DNA from: an uncultured Acidobacteriota bacterium
Lineage (GTDB): Bacteria; Acidobacteriota; UBA6911
Reading direction: 5' to 3'
Length of the DNA: 64,000 bases
Assembly (NCBI GenBank): GCA_963839475.1
Contig: CAWIVH010000019.1
Span: 202,725 to 266,724 of the forward strand
Shown here piece by piece: positions 2,071 to 61,981 of this stretch (within the stretch, counting starts at the first letter, position 1; every line of letters begins with the position of its first letter). The position numbers and the translations under genes were made by a program. Under the pieces are notes generated by a model. That model saw nothing but the letters and a program-made list of their open reading frames with translations, was not told the DNA's origin and did no database searches.

Positions 2071-3879
2071 CTATTTTCCTGACGGTAGGCACGCTTCGCT
2101 TTCGACGATGGCAGGGAGCGCGATATAGAAGGTGACACCGCGGTCCGGGTTGTTCACGTACCAGAGGCGGCCGTTGTGGGATTCGATGATGGAGCGTGAA
2201 ATTACCAGGCCGATCCCGAGTCCATTCTCCTTGGTTGAAGCAAAGGCCTCGAACATTTTACCCCGCCGATCCTCGGGAATGCCGGGACCTGAATCCCCGA
2301 TCGACACCAGCACTTCACGGGCGTCGGCGCTTGCGAGAGCCACCTCCATTCGCTTTTGCCCGGCAAGCTGGCCTTGCATCGCCTCGACGGCGTTCAACAC
2401 CAGGTTCAGGATTACCTGCTGGAGCTGGACTTTGTCGGCCAGTACATGGAAATCGGGCTCCAAGTGCAGGCCCAGTTGAATTTGTTTGCTGACAAAATCG
2501 CTGGACAGCAGCTTCACTACCCATTGAATCGTTTCTGCCAGGCTAGTTTTTTCGCGCCGCGTTTCCCGGCGCAGCAGCAGGTCGCGCAGGCCGCTGACGA
2601 CTGAAGCAGCACGTTTGTCGTCGAGGACGATGTCGGTCAGGATTTCGATGATTTCCTCGAGATCAGGATCCGGGCCGCTGAAGAATCGCAAGCCAGCCTG
2701 AGCGTTGCTCAGGATTGCGGCCAACGGTTGGTTTAGTTCGTGCATCAGAGAGGTCGTGACCGCCGCGGTCTGCGCGACCCGATCTGCGTGCCAGAGGAGC
2801 TGGTGAAGCCGGTTTAGCTCCTCCTCTGCATGCTTGCGCTCGCTGATGTCCTGCAATACGCCTACAATATTTGCCGCCTGCCCTGCTCCATTGCGATCCA
2901 GAACCCGCGACAGGTGGCGATACCACTTCATGCCTTCCGTGGGATGCAGATATCGATATTCGAGGGCAAATTTGTCCAGTTTGCCTTCAAGAATTCCCTT
3001 GGATACATGGAGCACCTGAGAGCGGTCGTCCGGGTGGATGTGCTTCAGCCAGTATTCCCGTATCCGCTCTTCCTCGCCCTGGGGGATGCCAACCAAAGCG
3101 CGGCAGCGGTCGTCGAGGAACTGCGCTCGCAAGCCGCTGCCAAGTTGGTAGAATCCCAGGGCGGCGATGTCGATGGCCGAAGCCAACCGGGCTTCGCTCT
3201 CGCGCAACAGTTGATCCGAACGCCGCCGGGCCAGTGCATTCGAAAATATCTGTGCAACCAGGTGTAGCCGCTTTACAAGCGCTTCCGGCCACTCACATTC
3301 CCGTTGCATATCATTGAAGGATATCGCACCGAACGGTGAATCCCCGCCCGTCGAAATGGGAAGAGTCAGCGTGGTCTTGACACCGAGGTAAGCGAAGACT
3401 TCCTTATCGCGGGCTGCTTCCTCCGGAAGCGCTGCCATCGATGATATAGAGACAGTTTTGCCGGCCAGGACCTGCCGTTGAATCCAAGGAAAATATTCGT
3501 CCGCGGCCATGTTTTCGGGAACCGGGGAGCCCCCCAGGGGCCTGTAGAGGTGGGTCATTTTGAGCGTGCGCGGATGCTCCGGAGACCACTGCCATAGTGC
3601 GCTCCAATCCAGCCCGAGACACTCGCAGACGCGGCGCTGGGCGTCTTCGATCTCACGGTCCAACAGTTCGGAAGGCACATTCACGAAACGCGCGGACAGA
3701 TCCGACAGCATCATCTCGAAATCAATATCCGGCACCTGTTCGCGGCATTCCGATTCAAGAAGCGGGCCCGGGTGTGCTCGTTCCGCTCGTGGGGATTGAG
3801 TTACTCCCCCGGGTTTTGCCGGCTCATGGCGCTGAAGTTCCAGTTCGAGTTTGCCCAGCGATTGCTCCAGTTCAATCAT
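2071..3879 (-). CDS. PAS/GAF sensor histidine kinase (cytoplasmic)
   Basis: H-box MHELNQPLAAILSNAQAGL. HATPase G-boxes DSGPGIPEDRRGKMFEAF and GLGIGLVISRSIIESHNGRLWY. N-terminal PAS/GAF-like sensor region. No TM segment. Confidence 0.85.
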   Translation of the reverse strand: MIELEQSLGKLELELQRHEPAKPGGVTQSPRAERAHPGPLLESECREQVPDIDFEMMLSDLSARFVNVPSELLDREIEDAQRRVCECLGLDWSALWQWSPEHPRTLKMTHLYRPLGGSPVPENMAADEYFPWIQRQVLAGKTVSISSMAALPEEAARDKEVFAYLGVKTTLTLPISTGGDSPFGAISFNDMQRECEWPEALVKRLHLVAQIFSNALARRRSDQLLRESEARLASAIDIAALGFYQLGSGLRAQFLDDRCRALVGIPQGEEERIREYWLKHIHPDDRSQVLHVSKGILEGKLDKFALEYRYLHPTEGMKWYRHLSRVLDRNGAGQAANIVGVLQDISERKHAEEELNRLHQLLWHADRVAQTAAVTTSLMHELNQPLAAILSNAQAGLRFFSGPDPDLEEIIEILTDIVLDDKRAASVVSGLRDLLLRRETRREKTSLAETIQWVVKLLSSDFVSKQIQLGLHLEPDFHVLADKVQLQQVILNLVLNAVEAMQGQLAGQKRMEVALASADAREVLVSIGDSGPGIPEDRRGKMFEAFASTKENGLGIGLVISRSIIESHNGRLWYVNNPDRGVTFYIALPAIVESEACLPSGK

Positions 3880-16430: not shown

Positions 16431-16576
16431 CGGAAACCTGGAATCTCAGCGCCGGTTGCGGGGTTCAAAATGTCGCCCCTTTGGGGCTCATCCTCTTCCC
16501 TATCGATTCCCCGGGCTCGAGCCCGGGGCTGTTTTCTGACGCGCCTTTGGCGCTCCAGATTAAGCCCGGAGTGGAT

Positions 16577-20743: not shown

Positions 20744-22132
20744 CTAGGCGGCTCCCTCAGTTCTGTAACCAGCTTCAACCCAGGCGGCAGTTCCTCCAGC
20801 CACGTTGAAGATCTGCCCGAAGCCATGGCGCTCCAGTATGCTTGTCGCCGCACTTGAACGATACCCGCTTCTGCAGATGACAGCCGTGGGCCGCCCGGAA
20901 TTATATATTCCCAGCTCTTTTTCCAGACGGGTCAATGGGGCATTCACTGCCCCCGGCGCATGCGCGAGGCTATACTCGCTGGGGTGGCGGACATCAATCA
21001 GCTGAAATGACCTTCCCTCCTCGATGAGGTTCTTGAGATCCTCGACCGGCATCTGGACAATGGATGCCGCGGGCAGCCCAGCCCGCTCCCAACCCGACAT
21101 TCCACATTCCAGAAATCCTTTCACCGTATCGATGCCGACGCGGGCGAGCCGCGTGACGGCCTCATCCACCTCGCCCCGCTCATCAGTGATAAGGATTATG
21201 GGGGTCCCGAGGGGTATCAACGCCCCGGCCCAGGAAGCAAATTGCCCGCCAAGTGCGATATTCAGGGCACCGTGAATGTGGCTATTTCCGAAAACCGCTG
21301 CCGGCCTGACGTCGAGCACCAACGAACCTTCTTCCGCAAGCACATGAACTTCGGCGGGCTGAAGCACAGCCGGCTTGGGCAGATGATCGAGAGCCGGCGC
21401 CCCGGCGCGATTCAGCTCGGCATCCCGGCTAAAATACGCCGGAACTTCAGGCAGGTCCGTTGTCATCATTCTGACAAAAGCATCTCGATCCATGGGCTGG
21501 AGCGCGTAATTGAAGCGCCGCTGCTGGCCGAGGGTCGACCAGGTCTCGTTCGACATATTGCGCCCGCACAGAGAGCCCGCACCATGTGCCGGATAGACTT
21601 CGACGTCGTCGGCAAGGCGAAGCAGTTTATCATGCAGGCTGTCATAGAGCATCGCGGCCATTTGTTCGGGGGCAAAACCCTTCGATCCCGCCAGGTCAGG
21701 CCGCCCGATATCTCCGATGAAGAGCGTATCGCCTGTCAGCACCTTCTGGGGCAGATAAGGTTCCGGCTCGCCACAGACGACAATGCAAATGCTCTCGGGC
21801 GTGTGACCCGGGGTTTCCAATATGTCCAGCCTGATTTGACCTACCTGAAGCCGGTCGCCGTCTTTCAGGGGGATGTGGGGAAAAGCCGCGCCCGCGCGCC
21901 GGCCAAAAGCTACCCGAGCTCCCGTCCGTTCCGCAAGCTCTCGGTGACCGCTGACGAAATCCGCATGCAAATGTGTTTCGATGACGTATTTGATCTTCAA
22001 GTTCTGCGCGTCGGCTTCTTGAATATACTGATCCACATCACGCTGGGGGTCGACAACCGCCGCTTCTCCATTCGAACCGATCAAATAAGATGCGTGCGCC
22101 AAACATCCCAGGTAAAACTGTTTGAAATACAT
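20744..22132 (-). CDS. persulfide dioxygenase (MBL fold) fused to two rhodanese domains (CstB-like)
   Basis: MBL metal motif THLHADFVSGH near the N-terminus. First rhodanese lacks the catalytic Cys (ILITDERG). Second rhodanese is intact (AVICRSGYRSS .. GGTAAWVEAGY). Confidence 0.85.
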   Translation of the reverse strand: MYFKQFYLGCLAHASYLIGSNGEAAVVDPQRDVDQYIQEADAQNLKIKYVIETHLHADFVSGHRELAERTGARVAFGRRAGAAFPHIPLKDGDRLQVGQIRLDILETPGHTPESICIVVCGEPEPYLPQKVLTGDTLFIGDIGRPDLAGSKGFAPEQMAAMLYDSLHDKLLRLADDVEVYPAHGAGSLCGRNMSNETWSTLGQQRRFNYALQPMDRDAFVRMMTTDLPEVPAYFSRDAELNRAGAPALDHLPKPAVLQPAEVHVLAEEGSLVLDVRPAAVFGNSHIHGALNIALGGQFASWAGALIPLGTPIILITDERGEVDEAVTRLARVGIDTVKGFLECGMSGWERAGLPAASIVQMPVEDLKNLIEEGRSFQLIDVRHPSEYSLAHAPGAVNAPLTRLEKELGIYNSGRPTAVICRSGYRSSAATSILERHGFGQIFNVAGGTAAWVEAGYRTEGAA

Positions 22133-29825: not shown

Positions 29826-30825
29826 ACTAGAGCGGATCCAGAGGATACCCGAGATCGCGCCAGGCGTCGAGACCGCCCGCGAGCGGCCGGACATCGGCTT
29901 TTCCTAGCCGGCGCAGCATCAGCGCTACACGAGCGCTGGTCGCCTCATTGGGTCAAGTGCAGTAGAGGATGAGCTCGCGATCTCCGGGAATCTCGTGAAT
30001 CCGGCGCTCGAGTTCCGCCGGCGTGATGTGCAGCGCACCCGGCAATTTCACACTGTCGGCTTCCGATATCAGGTCGTGGCGCAGATCGATGATGTTGAGG
30101 CTTTCGCCCGCTTCCAGTCTCTGTTTCAGTTCCTCCGGTGTGATACGTGCGGTGCGCAAGTGCGCCAGAAATCGCCTGCGCTGGAGGAGTTTGAAAGCCA
30201 ACCAGAACGCGATCGAGCCAAGCAGCAGAACGGTCATCCCGGCACCGAGACGAAATGCGTGCCTGGCGACGACCTCCAGCTGTTCGCTGAACAAAAATCC
30301 CAGGCCGGCGAATGCCCCGATCCAGAGCAACGATCCGATCGCATCCATGGCGATGAAGCGCAGGAGGGAAACCCGGAGCATCCCCGCCAGGGGAGGCGCA
30401 ACAGTCCCCAGTCCGGGCACGAATTTGGCATAGATCAGAGACCAGACCCCATGCCGCTCGAATAGATTTTCAGTCCGGCGAACACAAGAATCGGGTTCCA
30501 ACGAAATCCGGCACAGAAAGCGCAGCATGGAGCTTCCTTTTTGCCGGCCCAGCTCATACCAGATGAGATCCGCCATCACGGAAGCTCCCACTCCCGCAAC
30601 AAGGGCGAGTCTGAATGAAACTTTCCCGTGGGCCGCCAGAGCACCGACAGCAAGGAGGTAGGGAGCCGCCGGGATGGGAATGCCGACCTGTTCCGCGAAC
30701 ACGATGCCGACCAGCACCGCGTAGCCATGATGGAGAACAAATTGAAGAACCGATTGCATAAGCTCCGATATTACCGGCTGAAAAGGAATCAGGTTGGAAC
30801 CACCCCAATTCCACCACCGCTCCAC
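29826..30825 (-). CDS. DedA-family membrane protein fused to a rhodanese domain, with in-frame TGA (29953-29955) at the predicted catalytic-Cys position (candidate selenocysteine; alternatively a nonsense mutation)
   Basis: DedA motifs FAEQVGIPIPAAPYLLAVG and FVPGLGTVAPPLAG. Rhodanese begins ..NIIDLRHD..ILYCT, then TGA. The same frame continues PNEATSARVALMLRRLGKADVRPLAGGLDAWRDLGYPLDPL* with the rhodanese C-terminal GGxxxW hallmark, ending at TAG 29826-29828. The track ORF stops at the TGA. The likely start is ATG 30757-30759 (MQSVLQF..); the alternative is 30825. Confidence 0.6.
29920..29938 (-). promoter_or_regulatory. candidate bacterial SECIS-like hairpin downstream of the in-frame UGA
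   Basis: mRNA reads UGA-CCCAAUGAGGCGAC-[CAGCGCU]-CGUGU-[AGCGCUG]. Perfect 7-bp stem with a 5-nt apical loop containing GU. The loop starts 21 nt after the UGA, within the 16-37 nt window of bacterial SECIS models. Confidence 0.35.
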
Positions 30826-44827: not shown

Positions 44828-45205
44828 ATGGCGAAAATACTGCTGGTCGAGGACAATGAGATGAATCGCGACATGCTGTCGCGCCGGCTGATGAAAAAGG
44901 GATACAGTGTCGTTATTGCCGTCGACGGACAGTCCGGCCTGGATCTGGGCTACTCGGAAACCCCTGATATAATCCTGATGGACATGAGCCTGCCCATCCT
45001 CGACGGGTGGGAGGCTACCCGCCGGCTGAAATCATCCCCCGAAACCCGATCGATTCCAATCATCGCACTGACGGCCCATGCCATGTCGTCAGATCGAACG
45101 AAAGCGATCGAAGCGGGCTGTGACGACTATGACACCAAGCCGGTCGATCTCCCGCGCCTGCTGGGAAAGATTGAGACCCTGCTCCATAAGGCATCTAGTT
45201 CATGA
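44828..45205 (+). CDS. single-domain response regulator (CheY-like)
   Basis: [14 protein letters not shown] .. ILMDMSLPILDG .. conserved K. Its stop overlaps the next gene's ATG (ATGA at 45202-45205). Confidence 0.85.
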   Translation: MAKILLVEDNEMNRDMLSRRLMKKGYSVVIAVDGQSGLDLGYSETPDIILMDMSLPILDGWEATRRLKSSPETRSIPIIALTAHAMSSDRTKAIEAGCDDYDTKPVDLPRLLGKIETLLHKASSS

Positions 45206-47118
45206 ATAAAGAGCCTGAAAAAAGCAATCCGGGGGCCGAGGGAGCGCGCGTCCGGCGCGCCCTGCTGGCCCATATGCGCCATGAACTCCGCACGCCGCTC
45301 AATGCGATACTCGGCTACAGCGAAATGTTGCTCGAAGATGCGGGCGGCGATGGCTGGGGCACAGTCAGGTCGGATCTCGAGAAGGTTCATGAAGCCGGAA
45401 CGCAACTTATTGCCATCGTTAACACCATCCTTGACCCGGCGAAAATCGAAGCCGGCATGATCAATCTCGAGGCTGCGGGCGATTTGATCCGGCACCAGTT
45501 GCGCACGCCGCTCGATGCCGTTATCGGCTATAGCGAGATGCTCATCGATGAGGCCGAATCGGCGGGACTGAGAGAATGCGCGGCCGACCTACAGCACATC
45601 CGGGCTGCCGGATTGAAACTGCTGGCCCTGATCGATGACATTATCCACTTTGCCGGAATCGAGACCTGGGCGGATGGATCAACGCCTCAGGTGGCAGCGG
45701 CATCCACCATGATCCAGAGCATTTTCACCCCCCCGCATTCCTCGCGACTCGAACAATCGACCGTTACCGAAATGGAACGGGGCTCACTCCTGGTGGTCGA
45801 TGATAACGAAATCAATCGCGACATTCTCTCGCGCTATCTGGAGCGCCGGGGGCATAGGGTCTCGACGGCAGCCAGCGGTCACGAAGCCTTGGATATCCTG
45901 TCCGGCCGAACTTACGATCTGATCCTGCTCGACATCATGATGCCTGGGCTGAACGGATTCGAAGTCCTCCAACAAATGAAATCCAGCCGGGAATTGAGCG
46001 GAATACCGGTAATCTTCATCAGCGCCCTGGATGACGCGCTCGGAAAAGTCCAGGCCTTCAGGACTGGAGGGGTGGATTATGTGACCAAGCCCTTCCAGGC
46101 CGATGAAGTCATCGCACGAGTGGAAAACCAGCTGAAGATCTCGCGACTGCAGAAGGATCTGGCCCGGCAAAACGAGGAGCTGATTCGGAAAAATAACGAA
46201 CTGGTTCAAGCGCATAGGCGGACTGCGCTGGTCTTTTCGGCTTTGGCCGAATCGTTGCCGGGGTCCACCCTGGATGAAAAATACCTTTTGGGGGAAATGA
46301 TCGGCACCGGAGGATTTGGCGCCGTTTACCGTGGCACCCACCTGGGATTGGACCTGCCCGTAGCTGTCAAGGTTTTCCGACCTGTCGCCGGTAACGATAC
46401 TCCGGATGCATTGGAGCGGTTTCGCCGTGAGGGAATCTCGGCCAGCCGGGTCAAACACCCCAATGCCGTCGAAATCCTGGACAACGGAATTTCTTCCAAC
46501 GGAATCGCCTACCTGGTCATGGAACTTTTACATGGGAGGACTCTGGGACAAGAAATGCTTGAGAAGCAGGTCCTTTCTCCCCGACGCACCGTCCGGATTA
46601 TCATCCCCGCGTGCCTTGCGCTGGCCGCCATTCACGAGGCTGACATCGTTCACCGGGATATCAAGCCTGAGAACATTTACCTTCACTCCACCCCTAAGGG
46701 AGAGGTGGTCAAGCTGCTCGATTTCGGCATTTCGAAGATGCTTGGAACAGAATCCGACCAGACCTTCGATAACACCACCAGGACCGGAAATGTGCTGGGC
46801 ACCCCGGCCTACATGGCGCCGGAACGATTTGAAAACAAGCCTTACGACGGCCGGGCGGATGTGTACAGCCTTGGCACCATATGTTACCGCATGCTTAGCG
46901 GCTTCCCACCCTTCCGCTCGGAGCGCGAGGATTTTTATGCGTTGGCCATCATGCATCTCCAGGCGCAGCCGCCCTCCTTGCGACAATACTTTCCTGAGAT
47001 TCCGGCGCGACTCGACAACCTGATACTCAGAACACTGGCCAAATCGCCCGTAGAGCGGCCGACGGCAGCGGAGCTGGCTGCACAATTGAGCGAACTCGAG
47101 CCTTTGCTGGAAGCCTGA
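45202..47118 (+). CDS. fusion protein: two HisKA-type phosphotransfer domains (no ATPase), receiver domain, Ser/Thr protein kinase
   Basis: H-boxes HMRHELRTPLNAILGYSEML and IRHQLRTPLDAVIGYSEML with no HATPase after them. REC (LLVVDDNEINRDIL .. LLDIMMPGLNG .. K). Coiled coil. Hanks kinase (IGTGGFGAVYRG, AVKV, HRDIKPENIYL, DFGISK, TPAYMAPE). Confidence 0.85.
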   Translation: MNKEPEKSNPGAEGARVRRALLAHMRHELRTPLNAILGYSEMLLEDAGGDGWGTVRSDLEKVHEAGTQLIAIVNTILDPAKIEAGMINLEAAGDLIRHQLRTPLDAVIGYSEMLIDEAESAGLRECAADLQHIRAAGLKLLALIDDIIHFAGIETWADGSTPQVAAASTMIQSIFTPPHSSRLEQSTVTEMERGSLLVVDDNEINRDILSRYLERRGHRVSTAASGHEALDILSGRTYDLILLDIMMPGLNGFEVLQQMKSSRELSGIPVIFISALDDALGKVQAFRTGGVDYVTKPFQADEVIARVENQLKISRLQKDLARQNEELIRKNNELVQAHRRTALVFSALAESLPGSTLDEKYLLGEMIGTGGFGAVYRGTHLGLDLPVAVKVFRPVAGNDTPDALERFRREGISASRVKHPNAVEILDNGISSNGIAYLVMELLHGRTLGQEMLEKQVLSPRRTVRIIIPACLALAAIHEADIVHRDIKPENIYLHSTPKGEVVKLLDFGISKMLGTESDQTFDNTTRTGNVLGTPAYMAPERFENKPYDGRADVYSLGTICYRMLSGFPPFRSEREDFYALAIMHLQAQPPSLRQYFPEIPARLDNLILRTLAKSPVERPTAAELAAQLSELEPLLEA

Positions 47119-59296: not shown

Positions 59297-60601
59297 TCAA
59301 TGGGTCGCGCAGGTCAGGCAGGGATCGAAGAGCCTCACGCAACGGGCGATCATCTCGTGGCCCGCGGCTGAAATCTCGTCGCCATCGAGGAAATCATCCG
59401 CAAGGTCGCGTATGGCCAGATTGATATAAGCATTGTTGAACTGGGTTGCGACAAACAGTTTGATCGATTCCACCATCCCCCGGTTGATTGTATAGCTGTG
59501 CAGCAGGATTCCGCGGGGAGCCTCCACAACGCCGATCCCTTTGCCGCTTACGCTGAGATCCACCTCGGTCTTCATGGGACGTGAAAGATCAATTTCCTCC
59601 AGCAGCTTCAGGATGGTTTTTGCCGAACAGAAGATCTCGAGAAGCCGGCAGATGTCAAAGTCGTCAATCGAAAGAGACTCGGTATCTCGCAAGCGATGGG
59701 TGATCTCGTATCCCTTGAGATCAGGGTCGTCAAGCACACCGTGCTTCCTGAAAAGCCGGGAAAGCGGCCCGACAAGAACGATGCCGGCGGGAAACCCGAG
59801 GGAAGACAGATAGGGAAGCTTTGCGAATGACCAATCCACTCGCATTTCGGACATGTTGTCCTCAAAACTGTCGGCGGTGAAGCTGCAGGTCTGCTGCCCC
59901 CTGTTGTCGAAGGTCCTGAAAGCCCTCTCCTCCCCGGTTTCATCGAAAGTCAGGAAATTCGTCGGATGCGCCTTCGGGAATCCAATGAGGTGGGGTTGCC
60001 TTGAACGTCCTTCAAAAATGACGAGCTCCTGCAAGGCCTCTGTCTTTATCTTCAATGCGATGTTGCGAATCTCGTCCAGGTCGGTTGCCGTTGGAATGGT
60101 CAGATAACTCCCGACACCCATGGCAACCGGATGGACGGCCCGTTTGCAGAGCACCTCGAGAATGCGGTTGCCGGCCTTGCGCCAGGCGAAAGCCTTGGCC
60201 GCCACCTCGGGGTGGCTTTGCATCATATCGAATATCCCGTTGGTAACGCCGAGCTGATCCGGAAGGGTCAGGAAGAAATAGCTCAGAGAATGGCTTGCAA
60301 TGGTCTCTCCCAGCAGGGCTATTTCCCGCAGCTTGGTCACGTCTTCCGGGACCTTTATCCCCACGGCGTTTTCCACCGCGCTGAATCCGGCAACCTGATG
60401 AGCGGTGCAACACAGGCCGCAGATCCGGGAGACGATTTGAGGCGCACAATCCGCCTGCCTGCCCTGAACTATTTTTTCAAACCCGCGAAAGTCCATGACT
60501 GAAAAATGGGCGGTCTTCACGCGGCCATGATCCACTTCCAGGTGGATGTCCGCGTTCCCCTCGATGCGCGTGGCTTTATTCAGTGTGATGATCTTGCCCA
60601 T
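59297..60601 (-). CDS. [NiFe]-hydrogenase large subunit (no C-terminal protease-cleaved extension)
   Basis: N-terminal RIEGN (variant of RxEGH; His replaced by Asn) and RICGLCCTAHQVA. C-terminal DPCLTCATH followed directly by the stop. 434 aa. Starts 1 nt after the small-subunit stop. Confidence 0.85.
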   Translation of the reverse strand: MGKIITLNKATRIEGNADIHLEVDHGRVKTAHFSVMDFRGFEKIVQGRQADCAPQIVSRICGLCCTAHQVAGFSAVENAVGIKVPEDVTKLREIALLGETIASHSLSYFFLTLPDQLGVTNGIFDMMQSHPEVAAKAFAWRKAGNRILEVLCKRAVHPVAMGVGSYLTIPTATDLDEIRNIALKIKTEALQELVIFEGRSRQPHLIGFPKAHPTNFLTFDETGEERAFRTFDNRGQQTCSFTADSFEDNMSEMRVDWSFAKLPYLSSLGFPAGIVLVGPLSRLFRKHGVLDDPDLKGYEITHRLRDTESLSIDDFDICRLLEIFCSAKTILKLLEEIDLSRPMKTEVDLSVSGKGIGVVEAPRGILLHSYTINRGMVESIKLFVATQFNNAYINLAIRDLADDFLDGDEISAAGHEMIARCVRLFDPCLTCATH

Positions 60602-61981
60602 TTACCGGTACCTCGTGGCGCTCGCGGAAGCCTCGTGATCAAAATCAAACAGCGCATGGCCCTGCCGCTTGAGCACCCGGACCCGTTCCCGGGTTGGCGC
60701 CTCCTCAACCTTGCATCGCAGGCTCAATCCTTTGGAGAAAACTTCTTCATAGTAGTCTCCGGCAGCGATTTTCTTCACCACGGGCATGGACGGGCCTCGA
60801 CATCCCCAGCAGGGCATCCCGTTAATGGGGCAGGGAGCGCCGCATCCGCCCTTCGTCACAAAGCCCATGCAGGCTGCACCCAAGGAGGTAAGGCATTTGC
60901 CCGGGTCCGCACCGGCAATCGGCGACATGTGGAAAGAACCCGCCACATCCTTGGACGCTTTTCTCGTGCACTCGGCGCAGACGATGGCCTTGCCTTTGCC
61001 TGCCTGCTCCGTCATGAGTTCCGTGATCAGCTGCAAAAGCAATTCAGGATTCGCTGGACATCCGGGGAGAAAGTAATCGACCTTGGCAAAAGTGGAGATT
61101 CGGTGGGCCTGTCTCAGGAGCGCCACCTTTCCGTGCTTCTGGTAGGTGGCGTCGCGGTCTACGCCGGCCTGGCCTGACAGATAATACGAGAATGCATCGA
61201 CCGTATTGCCGTAAGTTTCCGCAATCAGTTCCTCGGGCTCAAACCGATTGGCTTCCCCTGGGATGCCACCATACGCCGCACAGGTTCCCCAGGCCACCAA
61301 ATAGCGGCTCTTGGCACGCGCCTCTTCCAGGACCTGAACATCATCCCGCAGCCTGACAAGCCCATCGACGATGGCAACATCGGCTTCCGAAAGGTGCGCG
61401 TTGTCCATGAGCATGGGGCAGTAGACAATTTTGGTGTATTGGAAGAGTTTCTCGAGCAACTGGTCGTCGAGGAGCACAGCGGAGCACCCGGCACAGGTGG
61501 ACAATGACACCAGCGATATCTTGATCTTCTCCTTTCTCAACACAGGGCGCCATGACATCAGCTGAGCAGCTTCAGAATGATTCGCGGGGCTCGCCAGGAT
61601 GGCCTGCTGCTCTTTGAGCATCGCGATGAGCGTCCTGGTAATGTGCAGGGCGATTTCCGGTCTGGCATTTATGAGATCGTGCAATTCGGATTTCTTGATT
61701 CGCGCCAGCAGCGTCTCCGACCCGGCAACGGCGGCGGCGCTTCTCGGCGAATCGGAAAGGATCGCCATTTCTCCGAAAAATCCACCGGGCTGCAGGATGC
61801 GGATCTCGCGCCTGTCTTCCCCTGCGCCCTGAAATATGCGCACGTCCCCTTTCAGGAGGATGTACATTTCATCGCCCGGATCCCCCTCGTTGAAAATGAC
61901 CTCTCCCGGCTGGAAGGATACGAGGCTGGCCGCGATCCCACTCCGAGGACTCCGTTTTGCCCTCGGGTTCATTAGCTGCAA
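60602..61981 (-). CDS. cyclic-nucleotide-binding domain fused to [NiFe]-hydrogenase small subunit (NuoB-like fold)
   Basis: N-terminal cNMP-binding domain with the phosphate-binding cassette FGEMAILSDSPRSAA. Residues ~150-459: proximal-cluster ligands LSTCAGCS, GTCAAYGGIP and PGCPANPE, then a Cys-rich medial/distal cluster region (CAECTRK .. CMGFVTKGGCGAPCPINGMPCWGCRGP). Its start overlaps the upstream gene's end by 10 nt. Confidence 0.8.
   Translation of the reverse strand: MQLMNPRAKRSPRSGIAASLVSFQPGEVIFNEGDPGDEMYILLKGDVRIFQGAGEDRREIRILQPGGFFGEMAILSDSPRSAAAVAGSETLLARIKKSELHDLINARPEIALHITRTLIAMLKEQQAILASPANHSEAAQLMSWRPVLRKEKIKISLVSLSTCAGCSAVLLDDQLLEKLFQYTKIVYCPMLMDNAHLSEADVAIVDGLVRLRDDVQVLEEARAKSRYLVAWGTCAAYGGIPGEANRFEPEELIAETYGNTVDAFSYYLSGQAGVDRDATYQKHGKVALLRQAHRISTFAKVDYFLPGCPANPELLLQLITELMTEQAGKGKAIVCAECTRKASKDVAGSFHMSPIAGADPGKCLTSLGAACMGFVTKGGCGAPCPINGMPCWGCRGPSMPVVKKIAAGDYYEEVFSKGLSLRCKVEEAPTRERVRVLKRQGHALFDFDHEASASATRYR

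Follow-up and report, generated by a model that had tools for sequence, protein, structure and literature searches.

A predicted selenoprotein of an uncultured Acidobacteriota bacterium in which a DedA membrane domain is fused to a rhodanese domain

Within the 64-kb stretch of DNA from an uncultured Acidobacteriota bacterium that was analysed here as a whole (referred to below as the window), a gene on the minus strand very probably encodes a selenoprotein of about 310 residues, in which an inner-membrane DedA domain is joined to a rhodanese domain and an in-frame UGA is recoded through SelB and tRNA-Sec under the direction of a 7-bp hairpin. The preliminary description of this DNA had put the gene forward as a selenoprotein candidate, and our analysis agrees with it on the grounds of the pairing of Cys and Sec among orthologs, translation past the UGA, the hairpin and the nature of the closest curated family.

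The minus-strand ORF extends from 30825 to 29953 and closes with ...GDRELILYCT followed by TGA (29955-29953), past which the same frame stays open for 41 codons (PNEATSARVALMLRRLGKADVRPLAGGLDAWRDLGYPLDPL) until a TAG at 29829-29827. The earlier picture of a DedA ORF interrupted by TGA, with 41 further codons and a terminal TAG, is borne out by the sequence and its translation, but two of its coordinates change. The feature, which was correctly described, ends at 29827 and not at 29826, and the ORF, which is as called, likely begins not at GTG 30825 but at ATG 30759 (MQSVLQFVLHHGY), a start that agrees with the database gene call P0001 and with the consensus N-terminus of the family. The sequence GGAG is found 3 nt upstream of this ATG. 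The features of the gene are the following:

29827-30759, minus strand: full read-through coding sequence of the DedA-rhodanese protein, 310 codons including U269, then TAG (29829-29827)
30298-30675, minus strand: residues 29-154, membrane domain of DedA/VTT type (PF09335, 55.3 bits, cutoff 33.9)
30484-30513, minus strand: C83 and C92 (LCRISLEPDSC), a C-x8-C pair within a basic DedA-domain loop
29857-30141, minus strand: rhodanese domain spanning the UGA, residues 207-301 (PF00581, 42.1 bits, cutoff 22.2)
29959-29961, minus strand: TGC, Cys267, the -2 partner in C-x-U, last residue of the central beta-strand region
29953-29955, minus strand: in-frame UGA, predicted selenocysteine U269 (from ortholog codon counts and the ends of database clusters)
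29920-29938, minus strand: predicted SECIS hairpin of bacterial type, with loop CGUGU (29931-29927) between the arms 29938-29932 and 29926-29920
29830-29952, minus strand: the 41 post-UGA codons, for the active-site loop, a helix, and the strand and helix that complete the rhodanese fold

The product has a DedA-rhodanese architecture, with PF09335 at the N-terminus and PF00581 at the C-terminus of one polypeptide of about 310 amino acids. Comparison with the Pfam rhodanese profile, which had been recommended as a check, was carried out with the TGA written as Cys and gave a match that spans the TGA and covers profile positions 1-100 of 102. Public gene calls stop at the UGA and report a 268-aa 'DedA' protein in which the active site is lost. 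Counting U, the window protein has only four Cys-type positions (C83, C92, Cys267 and U269). The gene is free-standing, flanked by a Kelch-like repeat gene that converges on it and by an SPFH/Band-7 gene that diverges from it. When the neighbourhoods of 81 loci were clustered, neither a conserved partner nor any Se or Sec gene was found near the gene, and the neighbourhoods of these loci gave no functional clue; no consensus for a sigma-70 promoter or an intrinsic terminator was found near the gene.

The position of the UGA is conserved. Among 80 related loci from species-representative genomes, 22 have TGA at the corresponding column and 58 have TGC or TGT, while TAA and TAG are found in none; with the window included, the count of TGA orthologs is 23 out of 81. 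None of the 81 genes has a stop codon at any of the remaining 293 aligned columns, even though about 20 other codons in each gene are a single substitution away from TGA, and the confinement of the stop to one column is far beyond chance. The TGA genes come from metagenome-assembled genomes labelled as Acidobacteriota/Terriglobia, Nitrospirota, Geobacteraceae, Gemmatimonadota and Thermodesulfobacteriota, and the TGA orthologs reach down to about 45% identity. In a rough neighbour-joining tree the Sec forms are scattered among the Cys forms, with no fewer than nine switches between the two. The active-site motif is LYCTU in the window and [YF]C[TSN]U in its relatives.

The same picture emerges from protein databases. 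From about 5.8 billion proteins, a search retrieved 11 distinct ones that are 62-100% identical and all end with ...LYCT, and in more distant full-length homologs, which carry the motif C-x-C-P-N-E-x-[TS]-S, the TGA aligns to the second Cys. The CxCPNE motif is present in more than 100 full-length proteins. When the 75 residues preceding the TGA were used as a query in an exhaustive search over 1.84 billion 50%-identity representatives, 105 of the best 150 matches among these clusters were found to end directly before the column and 34 to continue with Cys. The search for Cys or UGA in orthologs that the preliminary description had proposed thus recovered both. That description had also counted TGC or TGT in orthologs as evidence against selenocysteine, which was badly framed since Cys-containing orthologs are expected for a real selenoprotein; the alternation of Sec and Cys at one column is the classic selenoprotein pattern. 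Given this pattern, the stop can be neither a recent nonsense mutation nor a base-call error.

The codons that follow the UGA are under purifying selection, i.e., they are translated. The frame remains open for 41-65 codons after the TGA in all 21 TGA genes examined, the median pairwise dN/dS of the post-TGA codons in these 21 genes is 0.19, and the sequence retains the rest of the rhodanese fold (...SARVAL...RPLxGGxxAWxxxGYP).

A hairpin (CAGCGCU-CGUGU-AGCGCUG), whose stem of 7 bp is perfectly paired and whose loop has 5 nt, begins 14 nt past the UGA. Folded alone it has a free energy of -11.3 kcal/mol (z = -2.99), and this local hairpin alone is significant: the z-score of the 81 nt after the UGA folded as a whole is not. 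In the bacterial SECIS model the loop has 3-9 nt and the stem 4-16 bp, the spacing between UGA and loop is 16-37 nt, a G occurs among the first two nucleotides of the loop, with G or U as the usual next nucleotide, and the minimum free energy is -7.5 kcal/mol or below (PMC13188914). The window hairpin falls within all of these limits, its spacing being 21 nt and its loop having G at position 2, then U. The check for a bacterial SECIS element by folding the region downstream of the UGA, which had been suggested earlier, therefore yielded a hairpin that conforms to the model, and covariation is present as well. In 19 distinct TGA genes 91.7% of the cells of the helix are paired, compared to 17-65% in slid registers, three of the seven pairs show changes on both sides, and the observed covariation score was reached by none of 500 shuffles. 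Loop positions G26 and G28 are invariant among the TGA genes. The window has a compensatory pair of its own, C-G to U-A, brought about by two synonymous codon changes (GCC to GCT and GTG to GTA).

The observations counted against the hairpin include its overlap with the conserved peptide SARVAL and its retention in some Cys forms. Because of the overlap with S-A-R-V-A-L, synonymous codons were resampled on each gene's own peptide. Under this resampling the TGA genes have 6.5 of 7 pairs as opposed to 3.9 expected (p < 0.05 individually in 16 of 23 genes), and the Cys genes have 4.9 pairs as opposed to 4.0 expected (p < 0.05 individually in 5 of 58). The choice among synonymous codons thus preserves the hairpin in TGA genes and does so far more weakly in Cys genes. 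Some of the Cys genes that are nested in Sec clades (for example, locus L013) retain a perfect hairpin, which is consistent with a recent conversion of Sec to Cys. The members of Nitrospirota type have a weaker stem with a G-A mismatch. No Rfam SECIS match was obtained either in the whole window at the gathering threshold or in a 241-nt region at permissive E-values. Bacterial SECIS elements are poorly covered in Rfam, and this negative result therefore says little.

The Sec-decoding trait is documented in Acidobacteria (PMC1794560). Within the 64-kb window and the 3-kb flanks of the 22 TGA loci, selA, selB, selD and tRNA-Sec are absent, and the 64-kb window contains no other convincing in-frame TGA gene. 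TGA is the ordinary stop codon of most window genes; a reassigned genetic code in which TGA is a sense codon was rejected, as TGA ends most window ORFs. We also observed that the hydrogenase large subunit encoded in the window terminates normally at DPCLTCATH and that an Acido-Lenti-1 RNA is present in the window.

It is conceivable, if improbable, that the UGA is read through without Sec, by a suppressor tRNA that inserts Cys or another residue. Suppressor tRNAs are reported in exactly these phyla: allo-tRNAs are known in Acidobacteria, and selC*-type tRNA-Cys in Nitrospirota and Deltaproteobacteria (PMC5389517). The absence of tRNA-Sec and sel genes from the regions inspected would fit such a scenario, and an inserted Cys would function, as Cys occupies this column in most orthologs. 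However, a general suppressor needs no hairpin, yet a hairpin that fits a SelB-dependent bacterial SECIS element is maintained through codon choice in the UGA genes. A strong general suppressor would also be harmful where TGA serves as the usual stop, and the nearest curated family, NF041203, is annotated as a selenoprotein. We therefore infer that the inserted residue is Sec. Less credible still is true termination at the UGA, in which a nonsense mutation would leave a DedA protein with an inactive rhodanese stub and a pseudogene remnant of 41 decaying codons. A single change from TGY to TGA suffices to create such a stop and gene callers do predict the short product, but the same stop recurs in 23 of 81 orthologs and in at least 105 distinct 50%-identity clusters, the TGA orthologs are free of any further stop or frameshift, and the downstream codons keep both a dN/dS of about 0.19 and the GG..AW..GYP motifs. 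The least probable reading, that TGA is a base-call or assembly error for a Cys codon (TGC or TGT, one base away) in a single assembly, is contradicted by the occurrence of the same TGA in independent assemblies from many projects and phyla and by the matching window hairpin with its own compensatory synonymous pair.

We next consider which residue of the rhodanese active site the predicted Sec replaces. The catalytic Cys of rhodaneses is the first residue of a six-residue loop that precedes a helix (C-X5-[S/T/R]), and U-PNEAT-S, with U as the first residue of the loop, has the canonical C-X5-S length. When a profile of the rhodanese domain of the family was aligned to solved rhodaneses, the U column coincided with the catalytic Cys in four ungapped alignments (6mxv domains 1 and 2, 3iwh, and 1yt8 domain 2). 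The GlpE-type alignment proposed previously, U-PNEAT-S against C-YHGNS-S, matches these four. In two gapped alignments (3tp9 and 6pfz) it is the preceding Cys267 that coincides with the catalytic Cys, at the cost of a 2-residue deletion. The claim that U stands at the position of the catalytic Cys is thus upheld by the ungapped alignments to PDB structures and opposed by the two gapped ones, and we regard it as favoured, not proven. An AlphaFold2 model was made of a Cys homolog (P0012) that is 58% identical to the window protein (pLDDT 88.5, pTM 0.79), and its rhodanese fold superimposes on 3tp9, 3ilm and 5ve3 with an rmsd of 1.4-1.9 Å (Foldseek). In this model a beta-strand ends at Y266, C267-T268-C269 form a connector, and a helix starts from P270, which would place the U position at the helix N-cap. 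The Cys267 column is invariant in an alignment of 47 full-length Cys homologs. A few UGA-form proteins in the databases are devoid of the -2 Cys (...LYGT, ...LFRT), and their sequences suggest that U is the essential residue.

The best NCBIfam match of the rhodanese domain is NF041203, rhodanese_LYCAU (E = 1.4e-20, profile positions 18-124 of 126), with a score of 73.2 bits, which is below the 115-bit equivalog cutoff. This family is the rhodanese-like selenoprotein 'form 3' with a CxU motif (PMC13188914), which that source credits to Zhang and Gladyshev 2005. The two share the rhodanese fold and a Sec located two positions after a Cys that follows L-Y (LYCAU in NF041203 and LYCTU here). NF041203 proteins, however, are stand-alone and about 126 aa long, whereas the window domain forms the C-terminus of a 310-aa polytopic membrane protein. 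The literature on rhodanese selenoproteins to which the preliminary description refers does exist, and the C-x-U form is among the entries of PMC13188914. Thiosulfate sulfurtransferases have basic active-site loops, whereas the PNEAT loop of the window protein is acidic or neutral, which makes classical thiosulfate-binding rhodanese chemistry doubtful; the domain would more likely serve in redox reactions or in the transfer of a chalcogen.

The DedA domain also departs from its characterized relatives. Residues E39, D51, R130 and R136 (YghB numbering) are essential for the flipping of UndP driven by the proton motive force (PMC10127716). In the window protein E39 is kept, D51 is replaced by A, R130 by K and R136 by G; across 75 members of the family compared with E. 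coli YghB, E39 is likewise kept, D51 is changed to A, L, I or V, R130 to K, and R136 to S, G or N. The window protein has the PF09335 core and E39 in common with the UndP flippases (E. coli YghB and YqjA, B. subtilis UptA), but the window family is without the full flippase signature, as D51 and R136 are both missing. Its scores against the UptA NCBIfam models are about 50 bits, far below the cutoffs of 250-300. Since D51 and R136 are missing, the DedA domain probably handles a substrate other than UndP. The C-x8-C pair of the DedA domain is present in 65 of 75 family members when searched with a strict regular expression, and both C83 and C92 are invariant among the 47 aligned full-length Cys homologs. 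Basic residues flank the C-x8-C loop and are also found in the linker after the last transmembrane helix (RRRF). Judging by this linker, the rhodanese domain is probably cytoplasmic, and by the positive-inside rule both thiol/selenol centres would probably face the cytoplasm.

On this basis a course of events can be proposed. The UGA at 29955-29953 would be decoded as Sec by SelB and tRNA-Sec, directed by the downstream hairpin, and Sec would replace the second Cys of C-x-C-P-N-E-A-[TS]-S at the helix N-cap, which is the canonical catalytic position. Sec269 may then act as a nucleophile that accepts either a chalcogen (sulfur or selenium) species or an oxidising equivalent, after which Cys267 would resolve the Sec269 adduct as a selenenylsulfide and the C-x8-C pair of the DedA loop may serve as a further relay. 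With the DedA domain probably handling a non-UndP substrate, the redox or sulfur-transfer module would couple to transport or regulate it. It is tempting to go further and to speculate, tentatively, that Sec269/Cys267 and the C-x8-C pair form a cytoplasmic relay that captures or reduces a chalcogen compound (for example, selenite or thiosulfate) moved by the non-UndP DedA domain, and that the proteins constitute an uncatalogued widespread family of integral-membrane selenoproteins; we consider this rather unlikely. The reference to a dedA mutant with altered selenite uptake that had been adduced in support of the candidate exists (Ledgham et al. 2005, as cited in PMC10127716), but it concerns a plain DedA protein and for the window protein is only a lead.

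Rhodanese selenoproteins, including the C-x-U form, and DedA-rhodanese fusions are both already known. An example of the latter, which belong to the COG0586 subfamily of DedA proteins, is P. aeruginosa PA1209 of 311 aa, and the role of the rhodanese part in such fusions is described as unclear (PMC10127716, PMC12893004). Proteins of the PA1209 type, set alongside the window protein by their description, have the same two-domain architecture and size, but the described fusions are treated as ordinary proteins, without mention of a Sec form. Sec-containing membrane proteins of sulfur and selenium traffic have been described as well (PMC13188914). The YeeE/YedE family selenoprotein is a membrane protein of this kind, with a YeeE membrane domain; TsoB (NF045694, rhodanese/DsbD-fusion-like) combines a sulfur-transfer module with a membrane domain that is DsbD-like; and E. 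coli YgaP, which is among the structural matches of the P0012 model, is a rhodanese held in the membrane by a 2-TM anchor and is not a selenoprotein. None of these three has a DedA domain, and the Sec motifs of the comparison selenoproteins (UxxxxU, GUxSG) differ from the C-x-U found here. The word 'DedA' is absent from the comprehensive 2026 selenoproteome review (PMC13188914), no model of NCBIfam release 20 claims the DedA-rhodanese fusion, and a DedA-fused Sec rhodanese was not found in the searchable literature, though an earlier mention elsewhere is possible.

The immediate consequence of the finding concerns annotation, as pipelines treat the UGA as a stop codon in at least 105 50%-identity clusters and in 22 of 80 species genomes. 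The Sec/Cys-exchangeable residue in C-x-[C/U] would mark a redox-active catalytic centre in DedA-rhodanese fusions, and both this centre and the lack of D51 and R136 speak against a function in UndP flipping. If confirmed, the protein would extend the bacterial selenoproteome of Acidobacteriota from soil and peat and of Nitrospirota by a polytopic member of a transporter family, and would provide a testable link to the older observation on selenite uptake by a dedA mutant. The chalcogen relay, if true, would offer the first mechanistic handle on the connection between DedA proteins and selenite and on the purpose of the DedA-rhodanese fusion.

The DedA domain of the DedA-rhodanese selenoprotein carries a pair of cysteines in a basic loop:

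30484-30513, minus strand, C-x8-C pair (LCRISLEPDSC; columns C83/C92 of alignment A3)

Both positions are without variation in the 47 Cys homologs aligned in A3; the DedA protein YghB of E. coli lacks the pair. The C-x8-C pair may be a redox partner of the C-x-U site in the rhodanese domain.

Several other genes and a small RNA are present in the window:

16509-16554, plus strand, Acido-Lenti-1 small RNA (Rfam RF01687; 50.2 bits versus a gathering score of 37)
20744-22132, minus strand, metallo-beta-lactamase fused to two rhodanese stretches, 462 aa
26431-29733, plus strand, 1100-aa protein with Kelch-like repeats
45202-47118, plus strand, HisKA, response-regulator receiver and Ser/Thr protein kinase domains in one ORF
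59297-61981, minus strand, NiFe-hydrogenase genes

The metallo-beta-lactamase-rhodanese protein, a second rhodanese protein in the window, is encoded about 8 kb from the DedA-rhodanese gene and resembles the persulfide dioxygenase-rhodanese fusions (3tp9, 5ve3) that also rank highest among the structures matching the DedA-fused rhodanese. The Kelch-like gene, which converges with the selenoprotein gene at the latter's 3' end, encodes about a dozen 'WVWDGxxW' repeats and, at the C-terminus of its product, three repeats of about 100 aa. The NiFe-hydrogenase large subunit ends normally, at DPCLTCATH-TGA, with Cys rather than Sec; the adjoining small subunit (Oxidored_q6) has an N-terminal cyclic-nucleotide-binding domain, an unusual fusion. 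Genes for signal transduction, namely histidine kinases, SpoIIE phosphatases and FHA-cyclases, are very abundant across the window. The Acido-Lenti-1 RNA is consistent with an Acidobacteriota origin of this DNA.

Among related loci, the hairpins of five labelled Nitrospirota or Geobacteraceae (L027, L043, L045, L047, L048) have G opposite A, a mismatch, at pair 20-34 of the stem and read GGCGAU instead of GGCGCU. In this subgroup the stem is shorter, or the SECIS structure may be different.

A Cys two positions ahead of the UGA is not strictly required in Sec forms, since two UGA-form database proteins (P0179, P0244) have C-termini in ...LYGT or ...LFRT and are devoid of it. Two Cys-form (TGT) orthologs, L013 and L016, are placed inside a Sec clade, and a perfect 7-bp SECIS-like hairpin is still present in L013 (around 3805-3850), apparently as a fossil left by a recent Sec-to-Cys conversion.
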